Origin: Candidatus Bathyarchaeales archaeon
Lineage (GTDB): Archaea; Thermoproteota; Bathyarchaeia; Bathyarchaeales; Bathycorpusculaceae
Length of the DNA: 64,000 nucleotides
Assembly (NCBI GenBank): GCA_049700035.1
Contig: JBNAWC010000002.1
Coordinates: forward strand, 6,847 to 70,846
Reading direction: 5' to 3'
The notes under the pieces: generated by a model
What the model was told of the DNA's origin: nothing
The model's input: the letters and a program-made list of their open reading frames with translations, nothing else
Database searches by the model: none
Position numbers and translations under genes: made by a program
Shown here: positions 11,899-42,431 of the stretch, piece after piece
Layout of the letters: every line of letters begins with the position of its first letter
Position numbering within the stretch: the first letter of the stretch is position 1

Positions 11899-11988
11899 AA
11901 TTCAGACTTCAAACACTTTTCTGACTCGATATTGTTAAATATTACTGTGTCAAAAAATATTGAGTCGTTTGTAAAAGGACGGAAAAAT

Positions 11989-15700: not shown

Positions 15701-15711
15701 ACGTTTTGCAC

Positions 15712-16746: not shown

Positions 16747-18192
16747 TTACGTGGATATCACGATTTTGTCGATGATTAGTGATGGACACATTGAGTTTCC
16801 AAAGGTTTTCAAGTCGCTTCCAACGGTAATAACGTTATTTAACGCCTCATACAAGTTCCCAGCCACAGTGCAGGGCTTGATTGGAAACGCGATTTCTCCA
16901 TTCTCAATTTTGAATGCATTATCAGCAGTTACCGAGAAATCACCAGTCACCACGTTTGAGTGAAAAGCGCCAATAAGTGAACCCTTCACCAGCACGCCCT
17001 CTTTTAGTTCCCTTATTAGGTCTTGCAAACCGCCTTTATTAGGCTGCAATATGAGGTTTGAGGGACTTATGGCTGGCTGATTAGCGTAAGCAGCAGTTAC
17101 ACGTCCCATTCTGCTGGCATTTCCCGTACTTTCTATTTTTTCACGCTTCGCAGTGTAATTATCATACAGAAAACTGGTCAATACGCCTTTTTCGATAACT
17201 GGGGTTTTCTGTTTTGGAACCCCTTCATCGTCGAACTTGCTTGTGCCAAAGCCGTCTGGCAGTGTTCCATCATCGACTATGGTGATTGCGTCGTTTGCTA
17301 CTTGACTTTTCAGTTTGCCTTTATAGATTGAACGGTTTTCTTGAACATTGAAGGCTGAAATTCCAAAAGTGAAGATTGCAGAGAAAAGCTCGTTCCAACT
17401 TTGGTTTTCGAAAACAACCGGACCGACGTACTTTTGAGGCAACGGTTTCTTCCCAAAATTTTCAACAGTCCTTTTTGAAGCATTAAGTGCGATGGGTCTT
17501 AAGTTCTCTGTGTAAGATCTGGACATTAAGAAGTCGCCACTTGACACTTCTGTGCCAGATTTAGCTTTGGCATAGAAATAGGCTATAAAAGCGGTGCCAT
17601 TATCAGAAGCTTCTACGCCATTCGTGTTAACTATAACCCTTGTAATGGAATTTGTGGAGATGGAACCCATAGCTTGAGTTATTCGTTTATCAAAGTCTCC
17701 CATGGCTACGCAACCATCAACACACAATTCTAAAAGTTTCTCAACGCCCACATCAGCTATTCTCTTATCAAAAATTCCGCCTTCTCCATGTGGCTTCTTC
17801 ATTTCGGGCAAGGATACCCAGTTTGGGTCTGGCGGCCTAATTTTCGCTATTTTTGTAGCTTCCTCAACTGCTCCTAAAACTTTTTTCTCTTCAATGCTTG
17901 ACACACTGGAAAAGCCCATTGCATTATTAACGACAGCCCTAACTCCGACGCCAGCTTTAATTCCACCAGTTATTTTTGGTATCCCCTTCTTTTTTATCCA
18001 AGGTTCTGCGATTCGCACAAGTGTTCCTTTAAATCCTCTTAGGGCGCCGCTTCTCGAGGCAAATATTCCGCCAACAAACTGAACAGCTAACTGTTTCTCA
18101 AAGTAAAGGAAAATTTCCGCTTCGTCTGTCCCCAATTTTTGAGCATAGCTTGAAGCCTTTTTGCCTATTTCCAGCAGTTCATGTTCGCTCAA
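16747..18192 (-). CDS. pmbA: TldE/PmbA family metalloprotease subunit (no HExxxH)
   Basis: PmbA/TldD-family length and C-terminal GxC...G motifs (VTGDFSVTADNAFKIENGEI). Immediately downstream of tldD with a 2-nt gap. Confidence 0.8.
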   Translation of the reverse strand: MSEHELLEIGKKASSYAQKLGTDEAEIFLYFEKQLAVQFVGGIFASRSGALRGFKGTLVRIAEPWIKKKGIPKITGGIKAGVGVRAVVNNAMGFSSVSSIEEKKVLGAVEEATKIAKIRPPDPNWVSLPEMKKPHGEGGIFDKRIADVGVEKLLELCVDGCVAMGDFDKRITQAMGSISTNSITRVIVNTNGVEASDNGTAFIAYFYAKAKSGTEVSSGDFLMSRSYTENLRPIALNASKRTVENFGKKPLPQKYVGPVVFENQSWNELFSAIFTFGISAFNVQENRSIYKGKLKSQVANDAITIVDDGTLPDGFGTSKFDDEGVPKQKTPVIEKGVLTSFLYDNYTAKREKIESTGNASRMGRVTAAYANQPAISPSNLILQPNKGGLQDLIRELKEGVLVKGSLIGAFHSNVVTGDFSVTADNAFKIENGEIAFPIKPCTVAGNLYEALNNVITVGSDLKTFGNSMCPSLIIDKIVIST

Positions 18193-18194
18193 GA

Positions 18195-19610
18195 CTACAC
18201 AGCACCTCCAAACAAAACATTTTTTACGAGAATATGTGGTCCGCCAGTGCCAACAAAAGCTCTCTGATTCATTTTCCCACAGCCTCCAAATGGAGTAGCG
18301 GATACGAGTAGGTCATTGCAGACCGCATCAACGTTCTTGAGCAGTTCAAGAATATTCCCAGTTAGTGCTACATCCTTTAAGGGGTATTTAGGCTCGCCGT
18401 TTTCAACCCAATATCCTCTTACAGCCTTAAACAGGAAAGTCCCTGTATCTTCAACTTGTCCGCCTGCCGTGTCTATAGCGTATATTCCTTGCTTTAGTTC
18501 TTTTAGGGCTTCGTCGGGTTTCCAGTTTCCGACATCAAAGTATGTGTTCCTCATTCTCACTATTGGTTCAAAAGAGTAATCTTGGCTTCTCGCGTTTCCA
18601 GTAGGCTCTGTTTTCAGCGCTTTCGCCGTGACCCTGCTATGTAAATAACTTTTTAAAACTCCGTTCTTGAGAATTTCAACGCGCTTGCAAGGTACTCCTT
18701 CATCATCAAAAAATATCTTATAACCGCCACTTTCAGGCAAGCCCTCATCAATTATTGAAACGTGCTCCGTTCCAAGCGTCTGACCAATCCTACCAGTTAG
18801 AGGAGAACCACCAATGACTACAAAATCTGCCTCAGATAAGTGCCCAAAGGATTCATGTGCAAGTACCCCCGCAAGTTTTGGATCTATGAGAGCATCAAAT
18901 TTTCCTGCGGGTGCTGGTTTAGCTTTGAGTTTTTCTAACGCCCAGTTAGCAGCGTTTTCAGCCATTTTTTCTGGGGTATGCTCATCCTTCTCAAACTCGT
19001 CTAAGCCGACGCTTCCGCCATGAGCGTCCCTTGCGTCAGCGATGCTGGCGCCTCTTTTTGCAACGCAAGCTACCCTTAAACCAACCAGTAGAGGTTCATA
19101 AGAAACTTTAGTTCCTTCAGTGTTTGCGTAGTGTATTGTTCCATGGTATTCTCCGAACCCGCTTGTAACATTGGCTATGCTTTTGCTTCGCTCCATGGCA
19201 GTTTTGCACTGTCTTAAGCAAAGGTCCTTTTTATCATCTAGAGAAACGGCCTTTGGATGTTTATTCACGTTTGTTACTTTCTTCTCGCTGATTGAAGCTG
19301 CACTTGCAAGGTTAAATTTGAGCAACGTTTTTTTTGTTGACGCTTTGGCGATTTGTATGGCTGTGTCAACTGCTCGGAAAACATTTACTTCATCAAGAAC
19401 GTTTGAGAAGGAAAATCCGCTGCTTTTTCCGTAGAAAACCCTAATCCCTATTCCAATGTTGCGAATTTCTGAAACCGTCCTTATTTCGTTGTTTATGGCT
19501 TCGATGTTAAGCGTCTTTGTATCTTCTCCTTTTGCCTCAGCAAAATAAGCACCCATATTAGACGCGTATTGTAACGCTTTATCCATCAAATCTTCTATCT
19601 GTGAACTCAT
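18195..19610 (-). CDS. tldD: TldD family zinc metalloprotease
   Basis: Catalytic HESFGH motif (AHESFGHLSEAD) and a family-typical C-terminus. Confidence 0.85.
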   Translation of the reverse strand: MSSQIEDLMDKALQYASNMGAYFAEAKGEDTKTLNIEAINNEIRTVSEIRNIGIGIRVFYGKSSGFSFSNVLDEVNVFRAVDTAIQIAKASTKKTLLKFNLASAASISEKKVTNVNKHPKAVSLDDKKDLCLRQCKTAMERSKSIANVTSGFGEYHGTIHYANTEGTKVSYEPLLVGLRVACVAKRGASIADARDAHGGSVGLDEFEKDEHTPEKMAENAANWALEKLKAKPAPAGKFDALIDPKLAGVLAHESFGHLSEADFVVIGGSPLTGRIGQTLGTEHVSIIDEGLPESGGYKIFFDDEGVPCKRVEILKNGVLKSYLHSRVTAKALKTEPTGNARSQDYSFEPIVRMRNTYFDVGNWKPDEALKELKQGIYAIDTAGGQVEDTGTFLFKAVRGYWVENGEPKYPLKDVALTGNILELLKNVDAVCNDLLVSATPFGGCGKMNQRAFVGTGGPHILVKNVLFGGAV

Positions 19611-19671: not shown

Positions 19672-21627
19672 TTATTCGCTTTCTGGGATTATCTTTTCTT
19701 CCTTTTCAAGGAAACCTGTCAAGAATATGGCGTATTCGCATGGGTGCTCGTTTTGTAGCAGGGATTTTATTATTTTTATTTTCCCCTTTTTGCCGTGGCT
19801 AACCCTAGAAATAATGTATTCAAGTGTTTTTTTCCGAAGACCGCAGAGCCACGTTTTCTGGTTGGTTTTGACCAGTTTGTAGTAGGGACAACTTTTGTAT
19901 TTTAGGGTGAAGCCTCCTTCAAAATATTCTATTTCAACTTCTACTCCTATTTCGCGATACATGTCAATAAGCCTTGCACCAACATCTTTGATTGTCCACG
20001 GGTAATCTTCTGGGAAAAGTGCATCTAACTGCTCTTTTTCAATGGCGAAAGCTTCCTCGATGGAGTTGCAAGACATGCCTTCAATGAGTGTTTGCATTAG
20101 CTTTTTCCGTGGCAATGGCTCCAGAACTGGTTTTTCCAAAAGTTTCAGTTTAAAGCTTAGCAGGTTCTGGAATGTTGTTGTTGAAACTTCATAACCTAAC
20201 TCCTTAAACATCGATTCTATTAAAATGCGTTGGCTGTTCATTACAAGAGGGTCTATCCGTTTAAAAATGATTGTGAAATGTTCATCACCAACAAACCTCA
20301 CTTCAGCGTCGGGCTGCGTTACGCTAATGCTTTTAATAATGAAGTTTTTAGAAAGACTACCGATTTTTTCTGGGTCGCTTCTAGCAAGCATGCGGATGGC
20401 GTTTGAGATGCGGACTCCTGTTGCGCGGTATATTTCCTCAAATTTTTGTCTATCACTCTCGTATACTTTTGCTGCAAAGGAGTTGAAGAGGTCGCGTGGA
20501 ACTGGGACAACATCTAAGAATTGCTTTCCTATTATTTGGAAGAGGTTTAGTTCTGCCAGCTGGTCTAGAATGCTTTGGTCTTCTGCGCCTACGTACTGTA
20601 TTGTCATATTTACATTTGCATGCTCGATTGAGTAGTGTAAAAGTTTCCATCCGCGTGTTGCCAAAACTATTGAAAGCACTGTTAAGGATAGACGGGCTGT
20701 CGATACGGCTGTGGCTTGAAAAACTAGCTCTAACGTGTTCTCTTTCTCTGTTAGAACTTTAACTTGCCTAAACCAGTTCATCTTGACAAAAGCAGAAATG
20801 ATGGTCTTCACGAAATCTTTGGGCTCTCTCGGAAACTCGCTAATGCCGAGAACTGTTCTTGCATCTTCTATGAAGTTGCCCAATTCTGTTACTGGTTCTT
20901 CCAGATGCTTTTCAGCCCAACCCATGAATGCTGGTCCAACAAGCATCAACGTGTTTTTGAACAACCCAGGAGTCACGTTTGCAAGTTCTTTTTCAATTTG
21001 CTGTTCCAGAAATTCGCCGAATTCCTTTCTTCTTAATGGGTAAATTTCGGGGCGAATCATTTTTATGGCTATGTCCTCGCCCATGATTCGTAGGTCGAAA
21101 TTCACGCTTATGCCTTCTAATATTGTGGCAACTTGAAAGGCAACCATTACGGGTAAACGTTTGAAGACTCTTGGTCTTAGTACGGCTATGCTGTCTATTT
21201 CGCTGTATGAGGGAATGTCAAAAAGGTTTGTAAGTCCTTTTATCTCTTCTAAAATCAGTAGGAATTCTTTGAAGTTTGATGGAGCTTTCCATGCGACAGA
21301 GCTTTTTAATATTTCGATTATGTTCTTTGCCTCTGCCTTTTGCTCCTTTATTAAGTCTTCAACTGTTTTGTTTCCTAGGGCGACTTCTAATAGGCTGTCA
21401 AGGCTTTTCCTACTAATCGATGTTAGGTCAAGCGCCTCTCTCAGTTTAGTTTGCTCATTAATTTTTGCTTTGATTGCACAATCGTCGCAAGAGCCAACCT
21501 TGTCCACCCTAAACAGAGTCTCTACAGCTTTTTCGAGGACACGGCTTTTCGTGCCATAGGTTTTTGCTAGTTCTTCAAGAATCTCGTCTGTTTTTCTGGT
21601 TATTGTTGTGTGAAGATGTACCGACAT
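19672..21627 (-). CDS. large uncharacterised protein: N-terminal ribbon-helix-helix (CopG/Arc-like) domain, repeated alpha/beta modules, and a C-terminal Cys-containing V4R/'methanogen output domain'-like module
   Basis: N-terminus VHLHTTITRKTDEILEELAKTYGTKSRVLEKAVETLF fits the RHH strand-helix-helix pattern. C-terminus KSCPYYKL...TWLCGL...HPCEYAIF. No enzyme motifs seen. Confidence 0.5.
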   Translation of the reverse strand: MSVHLHTTITRKTDEILEELAKTYGTKSRVLEKAVETLFRVDKVGSCDDCAIKAKINEQTKLREALDLTSISRKSLDSLLEVALGNKTVEDLIKEQKAEAKNIIEILKSSVAWKAPSNFKEFLLILEEIKGLTNLFDIPSYSEIDSIAVLRPRVFKRLPVMVAFQVATILEGISVNFDLRIMGEDIAIKMIRPEIYPLRRKEFGEFLEQQIEKELANVTPGLFKNTLMLVGPAFMGWAEKHLEEPVTELGNFIEDARTVLGISEFPREPKDFVKTIISAFVKMNWFRQVKVLTEKENTLELVFQATAVSTARLSLTVLSIVLATRGWKLLHYSIEHANVNMTIQYVGAEDQSILDQLAELNLFQIIGKQFLDVVPVPRDLFNSFAAKVYESDRQKFEEIYRATGVRISNAIRMLARSDPEKIGSLSKNFIIKSISVTQPDAEVRFVGDEHFTIIFKRIDPLVMNSQRILIESMFKELGYEVSTTTFQNLLSFKLKLLEKPVLEPLPRKKLMQTLIEGMSCNSIEEAFAIEKEQLDALFPEDYPWTIKDVGARLIDMYREIGVEVEIEYFEGGFTLKYKSCPYYKLVKTNQKTWLCGLRKKTLEYIISRVSHGKKGKIKIIKSLLQNEHPCEYAIFLTGFLEKEEKIIPESE

Positions 21628-21667
21628 TATGATTCACGGGTTATCTTTTGGATTGGTTACTTTTAAA

Positions 21668-21697
21668 CATGTTCATAAAAATTTGTGGAATGTACAT
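21668..21697. promoter_or_regulatory. ATGTWCAT box pair upstream of the RHH-protein gene
   Basis: ATGTTCAT at 21669-21676 and palindromic ATGTACAT at 21690-21697, 21 bp apart. They abut a TTTAAAAG TATA-like element (21660-21667, minus sense) 33-40 nt upstream of ATG 21627. Confidence 0.5.
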
Positions 21698-21711
21698 AGA
21701 AAAGGGGGATG

Positions 21712-23490
21712 TTAACTTGGCGTTAATGGTGGCACGATGGGGCTGAATGTTGTGCCCTTTCTGGCTACGAGTGCATCTGCTACTCTTTTAACGGCTAACA
21801 TGTAGGCTGCTGTGCGCATGTTCACATTGTACTGTTTTGACATTTTAAGCACATCTTGGAAAGCCTTGGTTATTGTTTCCTTCAGTTTATTTCTAACTTC
21901 TTCTTCAGTCCAGTAATAGTTCATTTGGTTCTGCACTTGCTCAAAGTAGCTGACGATTACTCCGCCAGAGTTGGCGAGAATGTCTGGAATTACAAAAACG
22001 CCTTTTTTGAACAGAATTTCATCCGCCTCTGGAGTTGTAGGTCCATTAGCACCTTCTGCAACGATTTTTGCTTTTATGTTTGGCGCGTTTTCCTTTGTTA
22101 TTTGGTTTTCTAATGCTGCTGGAACTAGGATGTCGCATTCTAATTCTAACAATTGTTCATTTGTTATGAAAGTGCTGCTAGGATAGTCAACAACTGAACC
22201 AGTTTTCTCCTTGTGCATCAAGACTTTTTCTGGGTCTAAGCCTTCTGGGTTGTAAGCGCCTCCTTTTGAGTCTGAAACTGCAATGATTTTGCATCCGATT
22301 TCATGGAGTAGACGTGCTGCATGGTAGCCGACGTTTCCGTAGCCTTGCACTGCGACAGTTGCGCCTTTGAGGTCTATCCCAAGATGTTTAGCGGCTTCGA
22401 CAACGGTGTACATAAGCCCCCTTGATGTGGCTTCGCTTCTCCCACGAGAGCCACCCACATGAACAGGTTTTCCAGTAACCACGCCAAAAACGGGATAGCC
22501 GACTATTTCGCTGTATTCGTCCATTATCCAAGCCATCATTTCAGCGGTTGTGTAAACGTCTGGCGCTGGCACATCTGTGAAAGGTCCTATGAACTTTGCT
22601 ATGGCACGTACATATCCCCTTGTGAGACGCTCAAGTTCTGCCCTTGACATTTCCTTGGGATTGCACCTAATTCCACCCTTGCCCCCGCCGAGAGGCAAAC
22701 CTGTCACGGCTGTTTTCCATGTCATCCAAGCAGCTAAGGCAGTAACTTCGTCCAAGGTGAGGTCTGGATGGTATCTTATGCCGCCCTTTGTTGGACCTAA
22801 AGCGTCATTGTATTGAACGCGGTATCCAGTGAAAACTTGGATGCTGCCATCATCCATGACTACTGGAATGTTGACGATAAGTGTGCGCATTGGGCGCTTC
22901 AATATTTCATGTATGCCTGGGTCGAGATTCAGTTTTTCGGCGGCTACGTCTAGCTGTTTAAGGGCGGCTTCATAAGGGTTTGGCGTGACCGCTAGAGGGG
23001 CTAAAGTGTCAACTTTGACAAACACGGCTGTTTGGAGTTTCTCAACTAAGTTCTTGAGGGTTTCCTTTGCTACTTCACCGTTGCCTTCACTGCTTCCATA
23101 AAACCACAAGTAAGTTTCAGTCAAAGCGTCTTCCTTCCTAGAGAGGAACGCCCCAGCCGGAGCCATTTTTGGACTTTCAGAGAAATAGTCAACGAGAACT
23201 CGCAGCATGTTAAGTTCTTCGCGTGTCAGAGGCAAAAGTTTCTTTATCAGTTCTGGCGCTTTCACGTGAACGTATTCAGCGTCCAACAATTTCTTCTGTA
23301 GCTCTTCAAAGACTTTTAAGGAATCCTCTATCGGTATGCCAAAGTTTTCTGAGTACGTTGTAAGCAAGGCATAGTGAGCCGTTGTGTAGCTTTCTATTTT
23401 TGCTGTCAACTCTGGTTTTTCAGCAAAGAAGTCCACCATTAACTTAAGCATTCCCAATTCACGAGCTGAAAGGTCTACCGAGTTTAACAT
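21712..23490 (-). CDS. glutamate dehydrogenase with ~170-aa internally duplicated N-terminal extension
   Basis: GDH core from NPYEAALKQLDVAAEKLNLDPG: GPTKGGIRYHP, catalytic-Lys loop PLGGGKGG, and Rossmann VAVQGYGNVG. ATG 23490 with GGAAGGTG upstream is preferred over TTG 23514. Confidence 0.85.
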   Translation of the reverse strand: MLNSVDLSARELGMLKLMVDFFAEKPELTAKIESYTTAHYALLTTYSENFGIPIEDSLKVFEELQKKLLDAEYVHVKAPELIKKLLPLTREELNMLRVLVDYFSESPKMAPAGAFLSRKEDALTETYLWFYGSSEGNGEVAKETLKNLVEKLQTAVFVKVDTLAPLAVTPNPYEAALKQLDVAAEKLNLDPGIHEILKRPMRTLIVNIPVVMDDGSIQVFTGYRVQYNDALGPTKGGIRYHPDLTLDEVTALAAWMTWKTAVTGLPLGGGKGGIRCNPKEMSRAELERLTRGYVRAIAKFIGPFTDVPAPDVYTTAEMMAWIMDEYSEIVGYPVFGVVTGKPVHVGGSRGRSEATSRGLMYTVVEAAKHLGIDLKGATVAVQGYGNVGYHAARLLHEIGCKIIAVSDSKGGAYNPEGLDPEKVLMHKEKTGSVVDYPSSTFITNEQLLELECDILVPAALENQITKENAPNIKAKIVAEGANGPTTPEADEILFKKGVFVIPDILANSGGVIVSYFEQVQNQMNYYWTEEEVRNKLKETITKAFQDVLKMSKQYNVNMRTAAYMLAVKRVADALVARKGTTFSPIVPPLTPS

Positions 23491-23522
23491 CTTTTCACAC
23501 CTTCCGAAAACCAACGAAAGTG

Positions 23523-23570
23523 ATGTTCAACTATAGAAACGTTATGTCCATCATGTACACGCATGTACAA
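23523..23570. promoter_or_regulatory. array of four ATGTNCAN boxes in the divergent GDH / KaiC-like promoter
   Basis: ATGTTCAA 23523, ATGTCCAT 23544, ATGTACAC 23553, and ATGTACAA 23563, with start-to-start spacing of 21, 9 and 10 bp. Confidence 0.5.
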
Positions 23571-23607
23571 GACAATAAAACAACCAAATTGCAACATAAC
23601 ATTTTTA

Positions 23608-24387
23608 ATGATGCCCACCACTCTTAAACATGGTGCACAATCCTTGATTAGCGAAAACCAAGCACGATACTCAACTGGAATAAAAAGCCTAGACGGACTC
23701 CTCGAAGGCGGATTACTCCTAGGAGAGAACGTCTTATGGGAAGTTGATTCTGGAACTTTCGCAAGAGAATTCATGTATTCGTTCATGCGCCAAGGACTAT
23801 TGGAAGGAAAACAGGTAATTTATTTAGATTTCATATATCCCCCACAAGCACTTATGCTCCAACTTGAACCGTTGACCAAATTGCTGCCAAGCGGATGGGA
23901 AAAGAAACTATTAGTTTTAGACTGCTTTTCAGAAGCAGCTGGACAAGGTGAACTTATATTTAATGATTTTTATGACAAGGCACCGTCTTGGATTAGGAAA
24001 GTTCCAAGCTCAAAAGATCCAGAACGCTTTCACCATTTCTTCGGAAGAATTGAAAGAGAATTTGTAACTCCAGGAACTAGGCTTGTTTTTAACAGTTTGT
24101 CAATTATGGAGCACAATTGGGGAAGGGATGTCGTAAAAGCGTTTTTTGGACATGTGTGTCCAGCGTTATATGCTTATCAAACTCTTGCTTATTGGACAAT
24201 GGCGAAAAATGCGCATCCAAAAGAGTTCTGCGCAATAATTGAGCATATAACACAGGTGGTTATTGACCTTTCAAGGCAAGGCGATAAAAACTTTCTACAG
24301 GTAAAGAAGGCTGGTGGAAGATACAACCCGCAAACATACCAGCGACGCGAGTACACTGTTAAGGGCTTGCAAATAGATATCCTTTAA
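23608..24387 (+). CDS. KaiC/RecA-superfamily-like protein with degenerate Walker A (predicted pseudo-ATPase)
   Basis: YSTGIKSLDGLLEGGLLLGENVLWEVDSGTFAREF aligns to the KaiC-like 'StGIpgLDelLgGGlp.G...li.G.pGtGKT.f' pattern, but GK[TS] is replaced by FAR. Walker-B-like LLVLDCFSE is retained. Start could be 23608, 23611 or 23563. Confidence 0.6.
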   Translation: MMPTTLKHGAQSLISENQARYSTGIKSLDGLLEGGLLLGENVLWEVDSGTFAREFMYSFMRQGLLEGKQVIYLDFIYPPQALMLQLEPLTKLLPSGWEKKLLVLDCFSEAAGQGELIFNDFYDKAPSWIRKVPSSKDPERFHHFFGRIEREFVTPGTRLVFNSLSIMEHNWGRDVVKAFFGHVCPALYAYQTLAYWTMAKNAHPKEFCAIIEHITQVVIDLSRQGDKNFLQVKKAGGRYNPQTYQRREYTVKGLQIDIL

Positions 24388-24410
24388 TGATTAGGAGCTA
24401 CTGCGTTCTT

Positions 24411-24428
24411 ATGTACATTCATGTTCAT
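24411..24428. promoter_or_regulatory. ATGTWCAT box pair upstream of the GltS-FMN-like gene
   Basis: ATGTACAT at 24411-24418 and ATGTTCAT at 24421-24428, 10 bp apart. They lie 23 bp upstream of TATA-like GTTTAAATG (24451-24459). Confidence 0.5.
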
Positions 24429-24506
24429 TTTTCGCGATTTTTAGGATAATGTTTAAATGTTGACGAAAATTAACCCCTTCATACCGAAATTTACAAACGT
24501 AAAAAG

Positions 24507-26123
24507 GTGAAAAAGATGACTGAGCGCGTATTCAGAAACAGTTCTTACCTGAACGGAAAATCAACAACTGGAACAACCACACGCGTCAAAGACACAAGCC
24601 CAACAAGTGGAATGTGTCCAATATGCATTCGCGATTGCCCAATAATGTGCGAGATTGGACTTTCAGCTTTCAGGGGAAGAGAAGCCCTATACCCAGAACC
24701 AGTACAATTCGGATACAGCACGGCTGGAGCACTCAAAGACTTTGGACTAGACTGGTCACACTTCAACATACAAGCTGGACTTTTTGAAGCTTTAGGTATA
24801 GAGGAAAACTCTGACGTTGCACTGTTTCCAAACGCAAGCACAGAAACAGTTGTTGCGGGCATACCACTAAAAATACCAGTGTTATGTGGCGCTTTCGGCT
24901 CAACAGACGTTGCAAGACTAAACTGGGAAGGATTAGCCATAGGAACAGCATTATCAGGCGCCATCATAATAGTTGGAGAAAACGTCTGCGGCATGGACCC
25001 CGAAGCACAATTCACAAATGGTAAAGTCACGTACTCCAAAGAACTGAAACGTAGAGTAGACTTGTTCAGAAAGTTCTGGGATGGAAAATACGGAGACATA
25101 GCAGTCCAAACAAACGTTGAAGACCAACGTTTAGGAGTTGATGTCTACGCCATCTCAAAACTGGAAGTCAATGTCATAGAAAGAAAATGGGGACAAGGAG
25201 CGAAGGCAATTGGAGGCGAAGTCCGAGTAAGAGACTTGCAAAGGGCGATAATGCTAAAGAAAAGAGGATACGTCGTGATTCCAGACCCAGAGGACCCAAC
25301 TGTGCAGCAAGCATTCAAGGAAGGCGTCTTCAAGTCGTTTGAAAGACATAGCCGCGTTGGAATACCGAAAGAAAAGAACATGATAGAAGACATAGAATGG
25401 TTGCGCGAGCAAGGTGCAAAACATGTGACGCTAAAAACTGGCGCCTACAGACCATCAGCAGTGGCATACACGTTAAAAATAGCTTCAGAAGCAAAAATTG
25501 ACGCAGTATACTTTGACGGGGCTGGTGGCGGAACTGGAATGAGCCCAGTTCCAATGATGGACGAGATGAGCATACCAACAGTGTATTTGGAAGCAATAGT
25601 TCTAAGGTGCGCGCAATTGCTGAAGAAGAAGGGTAAATACGTTCCAGACTTGATTATGGCTGGAGGCTTCATAAATGAAACACAGATTTTCAAGGCAATC
25701 GCAATGAGCAACTTCGGAGATGGCCCATTTGTGAAGGCAGTTTTGATGGGACGCTCCCCGCTGACCGCTGTAATGAAGGCAAGCTACTTCAAACAGTTAG
25801 CAGAAGAAGGCAAACTGCCAAAAGCTTTCGCAGATAGATTTGGTAACACTCCAGACAAATTCTTCATTGCAGCACCAGAACTAAGGGAGAAGTATGGTGA
25901 GCGCTTCAAAGAAATTCCATGGGAAGCGGTTGCACTTTACACTTACCTAACAGACCGAATAGGAGTCGGCTTAAAACAACTCCTAGCTGGAAACAGAAAG
26001 TGGAAACTGGAGCTAATAAACAGAAATGACCTAATGAGCCTATCAGAAATAGCTGCAAAAGTAACAGGCATACCATTGCCACACGAAGTTGAGGCAGACG
26101 CCATCGAAAGAATATTAAACTAA
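24507..26123 (+). CDS. FMN-binding glutamate synthase family protein (GltB domain-2-like), divergent, with N-terminal Cys cluster
   Basis: WGQGAKAIGGEV and FDGAGGGTGMSP match the GltS FMN-domain QGAKPGEGG / GGTGA(S)P motifs. N-terminal CPICIRDCPIMCE. GTG 24507 or ATG 24516. Confidence 0.7.
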   Translation: MKKMTERVFRNSSYLNGKSTTGTTTRVKDTSPTSGMCPICIRDCPIMCEIGLSAFRGREALYPEPVQFGYSTAGALKDFGLDWSHFNIQAGLFEALGIEENSDVALFPNASTETVVAGIPLKIPVLCGAFGSTDVARLNWEGLAIGTALSGAIIIVGENVCGMDPEAQFTNGKVTYSKELKRRVDLFRKFWDGKYGDIAVQTNVEDQRLGVDVYAISKLEVNVIERKWGQGAKAIGGEVRVRDLQRAIMLKKRGYVVIPDPEDPTVQQAFKEGVFKSFERHSRVGIPKEKNMIEDIEWLREQGAKHVTLKTGAYRPSAVAYTLKIASEAKIDAVYFDGAGGGTGMSPVPMMDEMSIPTVYLEAIVLRCAQLLKKKGKYVPDLIMAGGFINETQIFKAIAMSNFGDGPFVKAVLMGRSPLTAVMKASYFKQLAEEGKLPKAFADRFGNTPDKFFIAAPELREKYGERFKEIPWEAVALYTYLTDRIGVGLKQLLAGNRKWKLELINRNDLMSLSEIAAKVTGIPLPHEVEADAIERILN

Positions 26124-26206
26124 CCTACCCCCCTCTTCTTTTTTAAACTTCACGCATAACAAGTTTTAAAACTATTAAAAAAGAAACATTGTAAGGAGTT
26201 GAGAAC

Positions 26207-27457
26207 ATGAAAGAACAGCAAACAGCACTTGACGTGGCTCTGGAACAGTTAGAAATAGCCGCTGAAAAATTAAACTTAGAACCTGGAATACATGAGATGC
26301 TGAAGCACCCCAAAAGGTCGCTAATTGTCTCCATTACGATAAGGATGGATGATGGAAGCATACACGTTTTAAAGGGATGCCGCGTTCAACATTGGGATGC
26401 ACGCGGACCATTTAAGGGTGGAATCCGCTATCACCCAAATGTAACACTTGAAGAGGTAACCGCACTTGCAATGTGGATGACTTGGAAATGCGCTGTTGTA
26501 GACATTCCATACGGAGGGGCAAAAGGTGGAATATGCTGTAATCCGAAGGAAATGTCAAAAAGTGAACTTGAAAGGCTTACAAGAAGGTACACAAGCCTAA
26601 TTCTTGATTACATTGGCCCGTACCGTGATGTACCAGCACCAGACGTTTACACAGACGCGCAAACAATGGCCTGGATAATGGACACATACAGCCAATTCAA
26701 AGGCTACAGCGTCCCAGAATGCGTAACTGGAAAACCAATAAGTGTTGGCGGCTCTGAGGGAAGAGAGGAAGCAACCTCAAGAGGAGTTGTAATCTGCGCA
26801 AGGGAAGCAGCAAAACGTTTAGGCTTAAAGTTTAAAGGCGCAACTGTCGCAGTGCAAGGCTACGGAAACGTCGGGTGGAACGCAGCAAAAATCGCACATG
26901 ACATAGGATGCAAAATTGTCGCAGTTAGCGACTCCACTGGAGGAATCTATTGCCCAGAAGGCTTAAACCCACGCAAAGTCTACGAACACAAGGCAAAAAC
27001 TGGCTCAGTAATTAACTATCCAAAATGCAAAAACATATCAAACGAGGAATTACTCGAAACAAAATGTGACATATTAATTCCAGCGGCGCTTGAAAACCAA
27101 ATAACAAGAGCTAATGCAGACAAGATAAAAGCGAAAATAATAGTCGAAGGCGCAAATGGACCGACAACCCCAGAAGCAGACAAAATACTTCGAGAAAGGG
27201 GAATTTTTCTGGTTCCAGACATCTTGGCAAACGCTGGCGGAGTAACAGTAAGCTATTTTGAATGGGTTCAAAACTTAACAAGAGAACATTGGACATTGGA
27301 AGAAGTGAACAGAAAACTCGAGAACATAATGGTGAAAGCGTTCAATGACGTTTACAACTTGATGGAAAAGAAAAAGGAGGCCATGCGCACAGCAGCATTA
27401 ATGCTTGGTGTCGGAAGAGTAAGCGAAGCAATAAAAACATTGGGACTATGGCCATAA
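26207..27457 (+). CDS. gdhA: glutamate dehydrogenase (canonical ~416 aa hexameric type)
   Basis: GPFKGGIRYHP, PYGGAKGG, and VAVQGYGNVG. About 60% identity by eye to the core of the extended paralog at 21712-23490. Confidence 0.92.
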   Translation: MKEQQTALDVALEQLEIAAEKLNLEPGIHEMLKHPKRSLIVSITIRMDDGSIHVLKGCRVQHWDARGPFKGGIRYHPNVTLEEVTALAMWMTWKCAVVDIPYGGAKGGICCNPKEMSKSELERLTRRYTSLILDYIGPYRDVPAPDVYTDAQTMAWIMDTYSQFKGYSVPECVTGKPISVGGSEGREEATSRGVVICAREAAKRLGLKFKGATVAVQGYGNVGWNAAKIAHDIGCKIVAVSDSTGGIYCPEGLNPRKVYEHKAKTGSVINYPKCKNISNEELLETKCDILIPAALENQITRANADKIKAKIIVEGANGPTTPEADKILRERGIFLVPDILANAGGVTVSYFEWVQNLTREHWTLEEVNRKLENIMVKAFNDVYNLMEKKKEAMRTAALMLGVGRVSEAIKTLGLWP

Positions 27458-27592
27458 CAGAAAACTGCCGAACCCCGATTTAAAACCCAACTTTCATATA
27501 ACCTTTACATTTTCAACTTTACAATCTAAATTTTTAAACTGTTGTCCTTATATCTCTACGCAGATGCAATTCCTGAAAATGGAGAAGGAGAA

Positions 27593-28162
27593 ATGCGGGA
27601 AAACGCATTAAACATCAAAACCTTAGACTTTGAATTTGAAAATTCATTAGTGAAAGTTATTGCTAATAGAAACTGCCCTGAAATTAAACTTGGAGGGCTA
27701 AATGTAGGACCGTTTGAAGAGGGGAATGTGTATGAAGTTCAGTTCTGGGTTGCGGAGGAACTTGAAAAGGCGGGAATTGTACGTTTTCGCGAGGAAGAAA
27801 TTTTGGATGCAAAAAAGATTTACAAGATTCAGTGGATGGAACGCGTCCAAACGCCACGCCAAATATCAAAGCTCCCAGAGAACTTCTACCCAAAACTTAG
27901 AAGGTATTTAGCAGAGTTAAAGAAGGCTTCCGCCAAGTCTCCAGAAAAAATGAGGGAGTACGAAAAAAGTAGGCAAGTGATACGTGATATGGTGAACGCG
28001 CGCCTAAAAAAGATTGTTTCATTAGCAACCGCAAATTTTGGACAAACTGAACAAATCTTGAAAAACCTCACATGCGAAGAACGGCTAATTTATGAACGTT
28101 TGCGCAAGCTTATCCACAACTGGAAAGCCAAAATATTGGAGTATGAGGAGCAAGGAGAATGA
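27593..28162 (+). CDS. gins23: GINS complex subunit Gins23
   Basis: B-domain-first architecture (GPFEEGNVYEVQFWVAEELEKAGIVRF), then a helical A domain (LPENFYPKLRRYLAEL...RDMVNARLKKIV). Overlaps the mcm start (ATGA), as in the Sulfolobus gins23-mcm operon. ATG 27593 follows GGAGAAGGAG. Confidence 0.75.
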   Translation: MRENALNIKTLDFEFENSLVKVIANRNCPEIKLGGLNVGPFEEGNVYEVQFWVAEELEKAGIVRFREEEILDAKKIYKIQWMERVQTPRQISKLPENFYPKLRRYLAELKKASAKSPEKMREYEKSRQVIRDMVNARLKKIVSLATANFGQTEQILKNLTCEERLIYERLRKLIHNWKAKILEYEEQGE

Positions 28163-30207
28163 CTGGAGAATTAGAGGTTGTAAACCCCCAAGAGCAGTTC
28201 CAAGAGTTCTTCAAAACAGAAAAGTACAGACAAAGAATAGCGCAGTTGGCTGTTGCTGGCAAAACATCGCTAATAGTTGATTTTGAAGACCTCCTAATCT
28301 TTGACAACAAACTCGCAGAAAAGCTACTTGAAAAACCAGACGAGTATCTGCAATATGCCAATAATGCAGCTTATTCGCAGCTTGAAAGCGAAGACCCAGA
28401 ATACGCCGAAAGACTGGCCAGCAAACGAGAAACACTAACCGTCAGAATAGTTAGGCTATTAGAGGCAACACCATTAAGAAAACTCGGCTCAGACCACATT
28501 GGAAAACTAGTAATGATAGAAGGCATCGTTGTACGCTCAACGCCAGCACGTCCAATGGTCATACGAGCAGCGTTCAAATGCAGACGATGCGGAGAAATAT
28601 CGTTTGAGGACCAGACAGGACAATTCCTAAAGGCGCCTTTCAAATGCAGAAACCCAGAATGCGGAGCAAAGGGGCCATTTGACTTTATCCAAGAAGAATC
28701 CGCATTCATAGATTCACAAGAGTTGCGCGTCCAAGAAAGACCAGAGGATTTGCCACCAGGTCAGCTTCCAAGAACATTGCACGTCAAGCTTGTCGGAGCG
28801 GAAATCGTTGATGTCGCAAGACCAGGCGACCACGTTTCAATAGTTGGCATAGTTCGCGTTGTTGCTCCATCGCTTCCAAGAGTTGGAAAACTTCGCACTT
28901 TTAGGCTTCATTTAGATGCAAATTCCATAGAAGTTTTGGGTAAAGAGCCAGAGACAGCTCTTCCGTCACCAGAGGAAGAGGAAAAAATCTTGGAGTTGGC
29001 AAAGGACCCGTGGATACATAGGAAGATAATAAATTCGATTGCACCGTCAATTTATGGCTATGACCACGTGAAAGAGGCGATAATGTACCTTCTCTTTGGC
29101 GGAGTGCCAAAAAATCTTCCAGACATAACAATAAGAGGCGAAATAAATACCCTCCTAATAGGCGACCCAGGAACCGCTAAATCACAACTTCTGCAATATG
29201 TTGCGAGAATTGCACCGCGTGGACTTTACACTTCTGGACGTGGCACAACAGCCGCCGGCTTAACAGCAGCGGTTATCCGAGAAAAGGGTGGAGGAATGAG
29301 TCTTGAGGCTGGCGCGCTTGTTTTAGCTGACAAGGGAATCGCTTGTATAGATGAAATGGATAAGATGCGCCCAGAAGATAGGGTTGCAATTCACGAAGCA
29401 ATGGAACAACACACAGTTTCGGTTGCAAAAGGCGGCATTGTAGCAACTCTAAACGCAAGAACAGCAATTCTTGCGGCTGCAAATCCCGCTTTCGGAAGGT
29501 ACGTGCCGGAACGTGCAATAGCCGAAAACATCTCTTTGCCGGTTACGATACTCTCTAGGTTCGACTTGATTTTCGTTTTAAGGGATGTGCCAAATAAGGA
29601 GTTAGACGGCAAAATGTCAGAACACATTTTGGAAATGCATAGAAAAAGTTCAAGCCCAACGGAACCTCCAATACCAACGGAGCTTCTGCGAAAATACATA
29701 AGCTATGCTAGGGGAATAAAGCCGGTTCTAACGCAAGAAGCATTACAAAGACTTAGGGACTTTTATTTGGCAATGCGTGCCGTAAGCGAATCAGAAGGCT
29801 CACCAGTCGCAATTACAGCCAGACAGCTTGAATCGCTTGTGCGCATAGCTGAGGCAAGAGCCAGAGCAGCACTAAGAAAAGAGGTTTTAGCCGAAGATGC
29901 TGAGGCAGCCATCGCAATAATGAAAAGGTCGCTTGAAGAAGTTGGCATAGATGTTTCCTCCTTTAAAATAGACATAGATACAATAATGACTGGAAAGCCT
30001 AAAAGCATGAGGGACAAGCTTCACGTTATCATTTCAAAGTTGATGGAGATGGAAAAAGAGACGGGACTCGTTGAAAAAAGGGCGCTTATAGATGAATTGG
30101 AGAGTAAACATAAGATTCAAAGAGCTGAAGCAGAACGCTTGATAGGACAATTATTACGCGAAGGAACAATATACGAGCCTAGAGAAGGCTACTTAAAGAA
30201 GACATAA
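28159..30207 (+). CDS. mcm: MCM replicative helicase
   Basis: Zn finger CRRCGE...CRNPECG, Walker A LLIGDPGTAKSQ, Walker B CIDEMDKM, and arginine finger SRFDLIF. Confidence 0.95.
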   Translation: MTGELEVVNPQEQFQEFFKTEKYRQRIAQLAVAGKTSLIVDFEDLLIFDNKLAEKLLEKPDEYLQYANNAAYSQLESEDPEYAERLASKRETLTVRIVRLLEATPLRKLGSDHIGKLVMIEGIVVRSTPARPMVIRAAFKCRRCGEISFEDQTGQFLKAPFKCRNPECGAKGPFDFIQEESAFIDSQELRVQERPEDLPPGQLPRTLHVKLVGAEIVDVARPGDHVSIVGIVRVVAPSLPRVGKLRTFRLHLDANSIEVLGKEPETALPSPEEEEKILELAKDPWIHRKIINSIAPSIYGYDHVKEAIMYLLFGGVPKNLPDITIRGEINTLLIGDPGTAKSQLLQYVARIAPRGLYTSGRGTTAAGLTAAVIREKGGGMSLEAGALVLADKGIACIDEMDKMRPEDRVAIHEAMEQHTVSVAKGGIVATLNARTAILAAANPAFGRYVPERAIAENISLPVTILSRFDLIFVLRDVPNKELDGKMSEHILEMHRKSSSPTEPPIPTELLRKYISYARGIKPVLTQEALQRLRDFYLAMRAVSESEGSPVAITARQLESLVRIAEARARAALRKEVLAEDAEAAIAIMKRSLEEVGIDVSSFKIDIDTIMTGKPKSMRDKLHVIISKLMEMEKETGLVEKRALIDELESKHKIQRAEAERLIGQLLREGTIYEPREGYLKKT

Positions 30208-36143: not shown

Positions 36144-36277
36144 TTTTATAAACGCCGCCTAAATACTTATTATCCTAAACAAAATAAACGTTAAGCCCCT
36201 TTTAATGAAAAAGAATGCACTTTAGTTAATCCCTAAATGTTTTTAAGCCATCAGTTATTAAGTCACGACGGAGAAAG

Positions 36278-37366: not shown

Positions 37367-37413
37367 TTAGTATTTACAAGGTGAGCCAAATAATTTTATT
37401 CTTTAATCAGATT

Positions 37414-42417: not shown

Positions 42418-42431
42418 AATAAGCTGAAAAA

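Follow-up and report, generated by a model that had tools for sequence, protein, structure and literature searches.

Four neighbouring genes in the window (the whole 64-kb stretch of DNA that was analysed) probably form a lineage-specific glutamate module under the control of an autoregulated one-component regulator, here called R651; this reading is drawn from comparative sequence analysis. The host belongs to an uncultivated archaeal lineage within Bathyarchaeia. The initial annotation had placed four atypical genes beside one for an ordinary glutamate dehydrogenase (GDH), and an ORF check confirmed all five predicted ORFs in the window at the positions described. Its overall interpretation, a five-gene glutamate unit controlled by an RHH protein, is supported in part. 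The genes and the protein features to which we refer are as follows.

19672..21627, minus strand: R651, putative one-component regulator, 651 aa (ORF list)
R651 aa 1-43: RHH-like N-terminus (motif and predicted topology)
R651 aa 47-50: conserved CxxC
R651 about aa 51-190, 196-345, 355-496 and 507-635: four α+ββαββ units
21712..22974, minus strand: catalytic core of the extended GDH (GDHx), ELFV_dehydrog_N + ELFV_dehydrog (profile match)
22975..23490, minus strand: GDHx N-terminal extension, 172 aa, two tandem repeats
23644..24387, plus strand: predicted inactivated KaiC (KaiC/RecA superfamily, P-loop destroyed), probable TTG start
24516..26123, plus strand: GltS-like divergent stand-alone FMN-domain protein, 535 aa (PF01645)
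24615-24650, plus strand: segment encoding the GltS-like N-terminal CxxCxxxCxxxC cluster
26207..27457, plus strand: ordinary GDH, 416 aa, with its own promoter; a frequent neighbour

Conservation of the neighbourhood

Wherever the contig reaches, the order of three of these genes is invariant (KaiC-like <- -> GDHx -> R651). This holds in 48 species-level representative genomes and in 80 metagenome loci for which the KaiC-like gene served as an independent seed; the proposed conserved neighbourhood of the atypical genes is thus borne out from both seeding directions, with the trio constant and its flanks rearranged. The flanks vary among loci, and may hold TldD, GINS-MCM, HhH-GPD, a far-side GltS-like gene or an ammonium transporter (Amt). 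Next to the trio there is usually the GltS-like gene; in some loci it is inverted, moved or replaced, and Amt occupies its position in one lineage. The ordinary GDH often lies nearby but is missing from some loci (such as L001/L002), and its promoter lacks the boxes described below (0 hexamers in 24/25 loci). It lies outside the box-controlled set, and the supposed five-gene unit is one of four genes instead. The curated families and literature that we searched contained no description of this composition, in agreement with the initial claim that it is undescribed.

A neighbourhood of this kind might be kept by phylogenetic inertia in one archaeal family, its genes being functionally unrelated. 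R651 orthologs are confined to Bathyarchaeia, a single class, at 63-94% identity, and GINS-MCM also often adjoins the block, which are points in favour of inertia. We nevertheless regard it as very improbable, since both flanks have been rearranged independently several times around an intact block, the GltS-like gene remains near when it is moved or inverted, and a specific cis-element is common to three of the promoters and absent from flanking genes.

Phased boxes in three promoters

That element is an 8-bp box, ATGTWCAT with core TG(T/A)ACA, whose position is conserved in the promoters of R651, the divergent GDHx/KaiC-like pair and the GltS-like gene; the earlier claim that these three share phased boxes is confirmed. 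The promoter elements are:

21660..21667, minus strand: putative R651 TATA box TTTAAAAG (ortholog-conserved block, assigned by eye)
21669..21676: R651 proximal box ATGAACAT (gene strand), abutting the TATA box in the BRE position
21690..21697: R651 distal box ATGTACAT (motif scan and ortholog alignment)
23523..23570: four-box array of the divergent GDHx/KaiC-like region (aligned orthologs), with box 4 at 23523-23530, box 3 at 23544-23551, box 2 at 23553-23560 and box 1 at 23563-23570
23532-23539, minus strand: GDHx TATA box TTTCTATA, between boxes 3 and 4
23602..23608, plus strand: putative KaiC-like TATA box TTTTTAA, in the conserved block AACRTTTTTAA
24411..24428: GltS-like promoter boxes ATGTACAT (24411-24418) and ATGTTCAT (24421-24428), 10 bp apart
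24452..24458, plus strand: putative GltS-like TATA box TTTAAAT, in the conserved block CTTTAAATG

Exact ATGTWCAT pairs stand at 21669 and 21690 (spacing 21 bp) and at 24411 and 24421 (spacing 10 bp), and the four copies in the divergent region are degenerate at their outer positions and keep the core TG(T/A/C)(A/T/C)CA. The putative R651 TATA box is 33 bp upstream of the ATG, the KaiC-like one follows box 1 at a distance of about 32 bp, and the GltS-like box pair is 24 bp upstream of its TATA box. Together the three promoters (365 bp) contain 7 TGWACA hexamers where 0.33 are expected (Poisson P = 6e-8); the 64-kb window has only three phased hexamer pairs, all of them within these promoters, against a mean of 0.32 in shuffled sequence.

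The boxes are held across loci. R651 promoters carry 2-3 TGWACA hexamers in 42/42 loci, divergent regions carry 3-4 at conserved positions in 37/37, and GltS-like promoters carry 2-3 in 29/29; the distal R651 box TGTACA is retained in most aligned loci, with one-base variants in a few. In ortholog alignments the intergenic DNA has diverged, and the boxes and TATA blocks alone stand out as conserved. Phased pairs fall in module promoters in 151 of 156 cases among the genome-derived loci (of the other five, four lie at contig edges or in frameshifted copies of these promoters, and one falls in coding sequence) and in 278 of 283 among the metagenome loci (of the other five, four lie in these promoters at contig edges). 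A check of box density thus found phased pairs almost absent elsewhere in about 1.6 Mb of related sequence. These counts cover loci within +/-10 kb, and because our view of the regulon ends there, the boxes could belong to a wider regulon of a different factor.

R651 and its distant relatives

R651 is likely to be a one-component transcription factor that controls the module and represents an undescribed archaeal family, in which an RHH-type N-terminus, a CxxC and four repeated units are combined. No Pfam or NCBIfam family matches it above threshold. The initial assignment of an RHH N-terminus is upheld by the motif and predicted topology, with weak HMM support: no RHH family gave a significant match, and RHH_3 and ParD give weak matches among members of the R651 alignment. 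G25 and E32 are invariant in 15 N-terminal sequences of the family and at least 90% conserved in larger alignments. An AF2 model (pLDDT 74) has coil-α-α followed by the four α+ββαββ units, whose similarity to one another in sequence does not exceed noise controls. Foldseek returned H-NOX matches with a probability of 0.99, yet with E about 0.03 and TM about 0.4, and none of these structural matches reached E <= 0.001.

The last unit, which bears a conserved Cys/His cluster, matches MetOD1 (PF18546) and so appears by sequence to be a MetOD1-like member of the HNOB/V4R superfamily of ligand-binding domains. The match is weak (aa 547-634, HMM positions 54-141), and R651's own score in the window falls under the Pfam cut-off; 18 members of the R651 alignment match MetOD1, with a best E of 9.5e-5. 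MetOD1, the ‘methanogen output domain 1’ of archaeal response regulators (Galperin et al. 2018, PMC5847659), is reported to be similar to HNOB and V4R, and in Methanobacteria and Methanomicrobia it occurs stand-alone or as REC-MetOD1 and REC-PAS-MetOD1 (PMC5847659). It resembles the C-terminal unit of R651 in its conserved Cys cluster, and the R651 relatives too are fused to REC or adjoin stand-alone REC proteins and histidine kinases. R651 itself differs from the described MetOD1 proteins in being REC-less, RHH-headed and from Bathyarchaeia.

Distant relatives (19–28% identity) come from Thorarchaeota in one group and otherwise from untyped metagenome contigs. Their gene contexts are unrelated, and the same box or a related one stands in their own promoters and in those of neighbouring operons. 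One group (P0153), 18-19% identical to R651 in multiple alignments and with homologs named Thorarchaeota or Promethearchaeota by NCBI, has the β-strand RVHLHTTI(A/S/V), whose VHLHTTI core is common to R651; in three genomes TGWACA boxes stand at about -57, -25 and -5 of its own ATG, and two of its loci (L140 and L141) also have phased boxes upstream of an adjoining corrinoid/MtmB operon. P0129 and P0137, which are 28% identical to each other and come from genomes of 33% and 57% GC, have the β-strand RVRLHTTIS in common, and ATGTGCAT/ATGCACAT pairs lie upstream of both; P0129 has a further pair ahead of the next operon. In P0124, whose β-strand is HVHVVTD, the boxes are TTGWACAA with a phasing of 20-22 bp. 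The REC-fused relative P0157 has no such boxes, and its β-strand also differs. The box variant follows the RHH β-strand sequence across these relatives, and it is strongly suggested by these sequences that R651 binds the boxes and regulates its own gene, as had been proposed.

An improbable alternative is that the boxes are true operators of another factor and that R651 is a co-regulated sensor or scaffold with no role in DNA binding. The want of a significant RHH HMM match would fit this idea, but R651 has the hallmark G-x-S/T turn and predicted β-α-α topology, its distant relatives have such boxes at their own promoters in unrelated contexts and lineages, the box variant follows the β-strand, and an unrelated factor would have to accompany every member of the family.

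The enzymes and the KaiC-like protein

The ELFV catalytic domains of GDHx lie at aa 208-584 of a 600-aa ORF; its core shares 65% identity with the adjacent ordinary GDH, and glutamate-type motifs are intact. A conserved Shine-Dalgarno sequence and ATG place the probable start at 23490, not at TTG 23514. The extension consists of two repeats of about 80 aa with 33% mutual identity (pairwise E 2e-8), is conserved in all orthologs, and has no match in PDB or Pfam and no paralog in the loci compared. It could be that the extension binds DNA or a regulator, in which case GDHx would be a ‘trigger enzyme’ comparable to PutA or RocG and R651 just one component. The extension is a tandem helical domain, strongly conserved and peculiar to GDHx, which is compatible with such a role, and PutA (an RHH-enzyme fusion) and RocG-GltC are precedents. 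We think this unlikely, as the extension resembles no DNA-binding family and R651 relatives have boxes in genomes with no extended GDH nearby.

The KaiC-like protein matches PAXNEB/KaiC and PDB entry 2w0m, and from its sequence we take it to be an inactivated pseudo-ATPase: the P-loop GEPGTGKT of SSO2452 is replaced by VDSGTFAR, with Lys and Thr lost, and the segment E(V/I)ESGTFAREF is kept across orthologs. The loss of the P-loop lysine noted in the initial annotation therefore stands, and the start is corrected, since the longest ORF opens at ATG 23563 and the probable start is TTG 23644. Inactivated KaiC-like domains (iKaiC) and KaiC-like ATPases have been proposed as signal-transduction hubs in archaea (Makarova, Galperin & Koonin 2017, cited in PMC5847659). 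The protein resembles iKaiC and Elp4/PAXNEB in its RecA/KaiC fold, loss of the Walker A Lys/Thr and signalling or regulatory neighbourhood; unlike iKaiC it lacks a fused REC, HalOD1 or MEDS-type module, and it is invariantly paired, divergently, with a glutamate dehydrogenase, a pairing not found described in the literature searched.

In the GltS-like protein the FMN domain is indeed divergent, with a partial PF01645 match (40.5 bits, positions 185-296 of 369) and neither an NCBIfam nor a PDB sequence match. The Cys cluster is likewise real, CPIC(I/V)RDCPxxC being found in 10/10 inspected orthologs; only the start needed correction, to ATG 24516, by a conserved Shine-Dalgarno sequence. The protein retains QGAK and GGTG-type motifs in common with the FMN domain of the GOGAT large subunit and archaeal GltB2-type proteins. 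It differs from these in its partial profile, its N-terminal CxxCxxxCxxxC and the absence of an adjoining amidotransferase, GXGXG or small-subunit gene.

Proposed regulation and known systems

Most likely, dimers of R651 would bind the 8-bp palindrome ATGTWCAT (core TGWACA), with the boxes operating as phased arrays 10 or 21 bp apart. At its own promoter, the box in the BRE position, right beside TATA, would imply autorepression, and boxes on either side of the GDHx TATA box would imply repression of GDHx. The boxes of MsvR reportedly overlap BRE/TATA. At the KaiC-like and GltS-like promoters the box pairs are 24-32 bp upstream of TATA, a placement that in archaea is compatible with activation or cooperative repression, and either may apply here. 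A ligand or redox signal received through the repeated units or the Cys clusters might then alter box occupancy and re-balance GDHx, an inactivated KaiC-like partner protein that may interact with GDHx, and a GltS-type Fe-S/FMN enzyme. The GDHx extension and the pseudo-ATPase may, as the initial annotation proposed, be regulatory or scaffolding parts. The usual ligands of V4R/HNOB domains are hydrophobic compounds, haem or metals. To our knowledge these domains do not bind amino acids or 2-oxoglutarate, so the idea of a ‘glutamate sensor’ is without direct support.

With the same architecture, the signal might instead be redox or metal status, in place of glutamate or nitrogen status. R651 would perceive it through the CxxC and the C-terminal Cys/His cluster, in the manner of MsvR, and would switch NAD(P)H- and ferredoxin-linked enzymes, GDHx and the Fe-S/FMN GltS-like protein, that serve as a source of electrons or a sink for them. 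Even distant relatives keep the CxxC that directly follows the RHH-like module; the MetOD1-like unit has its conserved Cys/His cluster, and MetOD1 and V4R have a 3-Cys cluster in common (PMC5847659); the GltS-like protein has its 4-Cys cluster; and relatives control redox-related Hdr/FlpD-like and corrinoid methyltransferase operons. The V4R regulators (MsvR; MopR/PoxR/DmpR; Msr of Methanosarcina) join a DNA-binding domain to a Cys-bearing V4R/HNOB domain, as R651 is predicted to do, and MsvR is an autoregulator that also controls a divergent operon and whose DNA binding is Cys/redox dependent (PMC3729527), much as in the R651 model. MsvR, however, has a winged helix-turn-helix and a single V4R, whereas R651 is RHH-like with four tandem units, the last being the only one similar to MetOD1 in sequence. 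The controlled genes are moreover glutamate-related (GDHx is glutamate-type, and FMN motifs of GltS type occur in the GltS-like protein), Amt stands in the GltS-like position in one lineage, and the Cys clusters may be structural zinc sites only, as in MopR/PoxR (PMC5847659). We rate redox sensing as a possible reading that is considerably less probable than the glutamate module.

Among RHH repressors, MetJ, NikR and omega resemble R651, as predicted here, in having a short N-terminal β-α-α DNA-binding module and autoregulation, and their operators resemble the box arrays in consisting of several short palindromic or heptad-like subsites, phased and overlapping the promoter; those of MetJ are tandem 8-bp palindromic metboxes, and NikR fuses RHH to a ligand-binding domain as we propose for R651. 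R651 is more than 10 times larger than these, has a CxxC and four α+ββαββ units in place of an ACT domain or SAM site, and is predicted to act on archaeal BRE/TATA promoters. Among GDH systems, Bacillus subtilis RocG/GudB-GltC and Thermus thermophilus GdhA/GdhB couple glutamate dehydrogenase to transcription of a glutamate-synthase gene or draw on GDH paralogs and extra subunits in regulation; the regulator family, promoter type and partner proteins found here all differ from theirs.

Gene content and conservation of the module

The genes that the initial annotation had joined into a five-gene glutamate unit are arranged in the window as follows:

19672–21627, minus strand: R651, a 651-aa putative one-component regulator
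21712–23490, minus strand: GDHx, a glutamate dehydrogenase (GDH) with an N-terminal extension; the Shine-Dalgarno sequence and ATG start are conserved, and the longest ORF runs from TTG 23514
23644–24387, plus strand: KaiC-like gene; probable TTG start, placed at the onset of ortholog conservation, and the longest ORF runs from 23563
24516–26123, plus strand: GltS-like gene
26207–27457, plus strand: GDH2, an ordinary GDH

When one genome per species was scanned, R651 orthologs turned up at 48 loci (63–94% identity), and the KaiC-like gene, the GDHx gene divergent from it and R651 downstream of GDHx keep this order in every one of these loci with enough flank. A reciprocal metagenome scan, seeded on the KaiC-like protein, returned 80 loci in which the same trio is invariant wherever the contig reaches. 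The co-occurrence in archaeal genomes and MAGs that had been proposed as a check is found, for the trio, in both sets of loci. The window is Bathyarchaeia DNA, and all named close homologs of R651 come from Bathyarchaeia or Bathyarchaeota MAGs.

The flanks of the trio are not conserved. R651 may be followed by TldD, by GINS-MCM, by an HhH-GPD glycosylase or by the GltS-like gene, and GINS-MCM is found on either side. The usual neighbour of the GltS-like gene is the KaiC-like gene; its orientation is inverted in some loci, it has been relocated to the far side of R651 in L049 and in two metagenome loci, and it was not found within 10 kb of the trio in L035 and L038. In L035, from a peat-derived Bathyarchaeia genome, an ammonium transporter gene (Amt, L035:5622–6869) fills the GltS-like position downstream of the KaiC-like gene, and inspection of the region upstream of Amt revealed no promoter boxes of the kind described below. 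GDH2 is missing from L001 and L002. Since the trio is invariant, the GltS-like gene mobile and GDH2 sometimes missing, the conserved core consists of three genes with a loosely tethered fourth (together, the module). The proposed five-gene neighbourhood accordingly stands for the trio and the usually adjoining GltS-like gene, but GDH2 is a frequent neighbour only.

Phased boxes in the module promoters

Shared boxes of sequence ATGTWCAT had been reported in three promoters of this region; we take TGWACA as their core hexamer. Exact ATGTWCAT sites are present at 21669/21690 and 24411/24421, and the divergent region between GDHx and the KaiC-like gene carries four copies whose outer bases are degenerate. 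When orthologous intergenic regions are aligned, the box cores and TATA-like blocks are the sole conserved blocks. Of the two boxes upstream of R651, the proximal one reads ATGAACAT on the gene strand and lies immediately beside the TATA box TTTAAAAG; the other is 21 bp farther upstream. In the divergent region, with the first core as position 0, the other cores follow at 10, 19 and 40. The TATA box of GDHx (TTTCTATA) sits between the third and fourth cores, and the KaiC-like TATA box about 32 bp past the first. The GltS-like promoter has a box pair with 10 bp spacing, 24 bp upstream of CTTTAAATG.

TGWACA hexamers in orthologous promoters

R651 promoter: 2–3 hexamers in 42/42 loci
Divergent GDHx/KaiC-like region: 3–4 hexamers in 37/37 loci
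GltS-like promoter: 2–3 hexamers in 29/29 loci
GDH2 promoter: 0 hexamers in 24/25 loci

Within the window there are only three phased pairs (two hexamers spaced 9–11 or 20–22 bp apart), all of them in the three module promoters, compared with an average of 0.32 in shuffled sequences; the module promoters together hold 7 hexamers in 365 bp where 0.33 are expected (P = 6e-8). The remaining exact ATGTWCAT sites of the window (13646, 20278 and 35586) are all within ORFs. The same concentration is seen elsewhere. In 819 kb of genome-derived loci, module promoters account for 151 of the 156 phased pairs; of the remaining five, four are at contig edges or frameshifted copies of module promoters and one is in coding sequence. 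In 811 kb of metagenome loci the figure is 278 of 283, and four of the other five are at contig edges of module promoters. The phased boxes in the three promoters are confirmed, with conserved positions, and our confidence that they are functional and shared is very high.

The GltS-like gene has a separate conserved element, TTT(A/G)CAAA(C/T)GTAAAGGTGA, in its 5' untranslated region (24490–24509), just upstream of the Shine-Dalgarno sequence and including it. It is kept in about 30 loci, while the surrounding leader is not, and it could serve in translational or leader control.

Predicted architecture of the putative regulator R651

The initial annotation had described four proteins of this region as atypical, and profile, repeat and motif analyses bear those descriptions out. 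R651 has no Pfam or NCBIfam match at normal thresholds. A search of 1.8 billion cluster representatives returned one full-length R651 cluster only and a few distant relatives that share aa 1–500 or aa 1–190; among the matches listed by a further homology search with a mixed alignment there were only close Bathyarchaeia orthologs, which added sequences for the structure alignment. An AF2 model built on a 40-sequence alignment reached a pLDDT of 74, whereas single-sequence AF2 was unusable (pLDDT 37).

In this model aa 1–10 are coil and aa 11–24 and 27–43 are helices, with a confidence of just 47–81 over aa 1–50, and a low-confidence CxxC loop follows. The β-strand of an RHH domain is expected to be unpaired in a monomer. 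The N-terminus has an alternating HLHTTIT pattern compatible with a β-strand, and the turn between the helices (Y-G25-T-K-S) has the Gly-x-Ser/Thr/Asn feature of RHH turns. G25 and E32 are invariant in 15 N-terminal sequences, including relatives of 24–48% identity, and are present in at least 90% of the sequences of 40–42-sequence alignments. A profile of this region gave no significant match against PDB or Pfam; the weak RHH matches were to RHH_3 in three members (best E 0.046) and to ParD (E 0.05–0.06 in Pfam, 0.42 in PDB). By its turn features and, more tentatively, its predicted topology, though not by HMM score, the R651 N-terminus reads like an RHH domain.

The rest of the model consists of a helical segment plus ββαββ, four times over (about aa 51–190, 196–345, 355–496 and 507–635). 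Internal duplication was tried as a reading of these units, and hhalign between them gave E values of 0.04–0.06, in the same range as unrelated controls; the four-unit repeat therefore rests on predicted topology. Residues 547–634 match MetOD1 at 14.4 bits (E 0.04), under the cut-off of 23.8; MetOD1 is matched by 18 members of the 40-sequence alignment (best E 9.5e-5), and some database orthologs carry a precomputed PF18546 match. Among natural structures, Foldseek ranks H-NOX domains first for this model, at a probability of 0.99 but with an E of about 0.03 and a TM of about 0.4. MetOD1 has been reported to resemble HNOB and V4R, and a cluster of three Cys is common to MetOD1 and V4R (PMC5847659). 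The R651 ortholog consensus likewise has three conserved Cys (KxCPYY, TWLC and HPCEY) and nearby His residues.

R651 has no REC domain and is not a two-component response regulator. Several of its relatives adjoin stand-alone receivers and histidine kinases or carry a fused receiver, contexts that place the R651 family in signal transduction. The relatives fused to REC, P0148 and P0157, are distant, and other distant relatives are REC-adjacent: those in L054 and L056 are divergent from a stand-alone receiver protein, in L054 with a histidine kinase as well. The small proteins beside P0124 and P0125 were tested as KaiC-like candidates and are not KaiC-like.

Boxes accompany distant relatives of R651

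The initial annotation had further supposed that the RHH protein acts on its own promoter through the shared boxes. Distant R651 relatives lie in unrelated gene contexts, yet have related boxes upstream of their own genes. In the P0153 group, whose named homologs are Thorarchaeota or Promethearchaeota and where P0153 is 18–19% identical to R651 in multiple alignments, the β-strand is RVHLHTTI(A/S/V), with a VHLHTTI core identical to that of R651. In three genomes (L059, L140 and L141) the ATG of the relative is preceded by TGWACA boxes at about -57, -25 and -5 (P 2e-4 to 3e-3 per locus for the own-promoter boxes). In L140 and L141 phased boxes are also found upstream of a neighbouring corrinoid-protein/MtmB-type methyltransferase operon, which suggests that the R651 family controls methyltransferase genes in Asgard archaea too.

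P0129 and P0137 are 28% identical, come from genomes of 33% and 57% GC, and have in common the β-strand RVRLHTTIS; both have ATGTGCAT/ATGCACAT pairs upstream of their own genes. A second such pair, with equal 19-bp spacing, precedes the next operon at P0129 (FAD/Fe-S oxidoreductases, FlpD). P0124 has the β-strand HVHVVTD and TTGWACAA boxes phased at 20–22 bp, and no such boxes were found upstream of P0157 (β-strand RIQTVIT).

Box regions at distant R651 relatives

P0153 group: L059:2529–2610; L140:160–255 and 4865–5003; L141:4767–5003 and 8200–8260
ATGTGCAT/ATGCACAT boxes: L054:4159–4185 and 6135–6161; L056:7909–7967

Boxes at the promoters of both the regulator and a neighbouring operon recur in at least three lineages, and the box variant co-varies with the β-strand sequence. 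If an unrelated factor recognized the boxes, it would have to accompany each family member through these unrelated contexts. R651 itself is therefore, from these comparisons, probably the protein that binds the boxes.

The enzymes and enzyme-like proteins of the module

GDHx carries both ELFV domains (Pfam E 3e-58 for ELFV_dehydrog_N and 5e-88 for ELFV_dehydrog; 1.5e-57 and 1.8e-89 in GDH2), and its catalytic core shares 65% identity with that of GDH2. Both have the domain and profile features of the hexameric ELFV-family GDHs, and their GdhA_Arch scores, 644 bits for GDHx and 588 for GDH2, are under the equivalog cut-off of 750. The GDHx sequence contains the motifs PTKGGIRYHP, LGGGKGG and SGGVIVSYFE; we take the Lys of the KGG motif, GGGKGG and the Ser of GGVxVS to be residues of glutamate specificity. 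The extension adds 172 aa before the core, as two repeats of about 80 aa with 33% identity between them (pairwise E 2e-8), and is kept in all orthologs at 44–93% identity. Profile and sequence searches of PDB and Pfam gave no match to it, no paralog was seen in any related locus compared, and hhalign found no similarity to the other module proteins.

The RecA/KaiC-like core of the KaiC-like protein is recognized by profile. The protein scores 34.6 bits with PAXNEB (cut-off 28) and 19.7 with KaiC PF06745, under the cut-off; matches to KaiC_arch TIGRFAMs are weak, and it matches the RadA-paralog structure 2w0m (SSO2452) at E 1.5e-3. The Walker A pattern GxxxxGK[ST] is absent, VDSGTFAR being aligned to GEPGTGKT of SSO2452. 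In its place E(V/I)ESGTFAREF is conserved in the 35-ortholog consensus, with a few substitutions among eight of the sequences (for example SATFARE, FAMEF, FALEF and FPQEF). Replacement of Walker A by a conserved segment argues, at the level of sequence, that the protein is of the inactivated KaiC type (iKaiC-type) and not an ATPase.

The GltS-like protein matches the PF01645 FMN domain at 40.5 bits (cut-off 20.4) over profile positions 185–296 of 369 only. QGAK and GGTG-type motifs are retained in it, along with a CPIC(I/V)RDCPxxC cluster that each of the ten orthologs inspected has; comparison with NCBIfam models and PDB sequences gave no match. Neither the protein nor its neighbours, in the window and about 130 related loci, include an amidotransferase, a GXGXG domain, a small subunit or GltB1/GltB3 partners. 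With the FMN domain present and the other GOGAT parts not found, we have not filed it as a glutamate synthase.

Proposed regulation and its significance

We read the module as an operator-controlled metabolic unit with an adjacent probable autoregulator, and we regard the finding as genuine and as resting on more support than the initial annotation could draw on. In the proposed mechanism R651 dimers would sit on the boxes. In archaeal promoters, whether a regulator represses or activates depends on where its site lies relative to BRE/TATA, and the signs that we propose follow by analogy. At its own and the GDHx promoters, where boxes lie over BRE/TATA or between TATA and start, R651 occupancy would block recruitment of TBP/TFB or polymerase and so repress; the box pairs 24–32 bp upstream of TATA at the KaiC-like and GltS-like promoters would be compatible with activation or cooperative assembly. 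The input to R651 would likely be its repeated HNOB/V4R-like units and Cys clusters, and candidate inputs are a nitrogen/carbon metabolite, a hydrophobic/aromatic ligand, a metal or redox state. Taken as a whole, with R651 binding to the boxes included, we consider this account the best explanation and a likely one; our confidence is low as to the signal sensed and as to what the extension and the KaiC-like protein do.

R651 would act in the manner of the RHH one-component autoregulators MetJ, NikR and omega, and also in that of MsvR, a V4R regulator of archaea; in R651 similarity to MetOD1 is limited to the last unit. RHH proteins bind short operator subsites repeated in arrays, in most cases within their own promoters. 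In Bacillus subtilis RocG-GltC, a GDH is reportedly coupled with control of a GltS-type gene; the coupling here would be alike and the parts are unrelated. The module is built from a regulator whose family is undescribed, a GDH with a novel domain, and a dedicated protein predicted to be a pseudo-ATPase. Our literature search found no paper describing the gene combination or the R651 family, and nothing relevant on RHH+V4R regulators or N-terminally extended archaeal GDHs.

The invariant divergent pairing, together with an extension unique to GDHx, leads us to infer that GDHx and the apparently inactivated KaiC-like protein act together; for these two orphan parts the pairing suggests post-translational control of the GDH. 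A more specific and rather improbable version would have a GDHx hexamer dock with a KaiC-like hexamer through the tandem N-terminal domain and report glutamate/2-oxoglutarate flux to R651. If true, this would be a "trigger-enzyme" signalling hub with no described counterpart in any of the domains of life, and its control would lie with a new family of archaeal transcription factors that operates also in Asgard archaea.

In sediments, soils and hot springs, few uncultivated archaea are as abundant as the Bathyarchaeia. They are believed to subsist mainly on detrital protein, and GDH is the hub of amino-acid catabolism. To our knowledge, almost nothing is known of metabolic regulation in this group. 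The present analysis supplies a concrete operator motif and a probable regulator, gives a handle on Bathyarchaeia metatranscriptomes, and points to a transcription-factor family, so far undescribed, in which the pattern of protein-to-DNA specificity is readable and which extends over Bathyarchaeia, Thorarchaeota and other lineages known only from metagenome contigs.

Genomic surroundings

The genes around the module in the window are replication and housekeeping genes. The unusually replication-rich stretch that encloses it (14441–16692, 27542–30207, 34365–36143 and 43313–44359) holds genes for the RFC large and small subunits, Gins23-MCM, Gins51-PriS and PriL, and in most relatives GINS-MCM adjoins the module on one side or the other. 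A TldD/PmbA pair (16747–19610) lies between R651 and the RFC genes, as it does in L019, L024, L032 and L042; it is missing from some relatives, with an HhH-GPD glycosylase there in L003 and fragments only in L006.

Between the primase small-subunit (34920–36143) and large-subunit (43313–44359) genes is inserted a stretch of low GC (36000–42500; 0.36 vs about 0.43) that encodes an exosortase/archaeosortase-like protein, a DUF6541 membrane protein and several glycosyltransferases, and looks like a variable cell-surface glycosylation island. The 823-aa product of a gene at 11932–14403 has FG-GAP and bacterial Ig-like domains and is probably a surface protein; one of the three intragenic ATGTWCAT sites lies within this gene.
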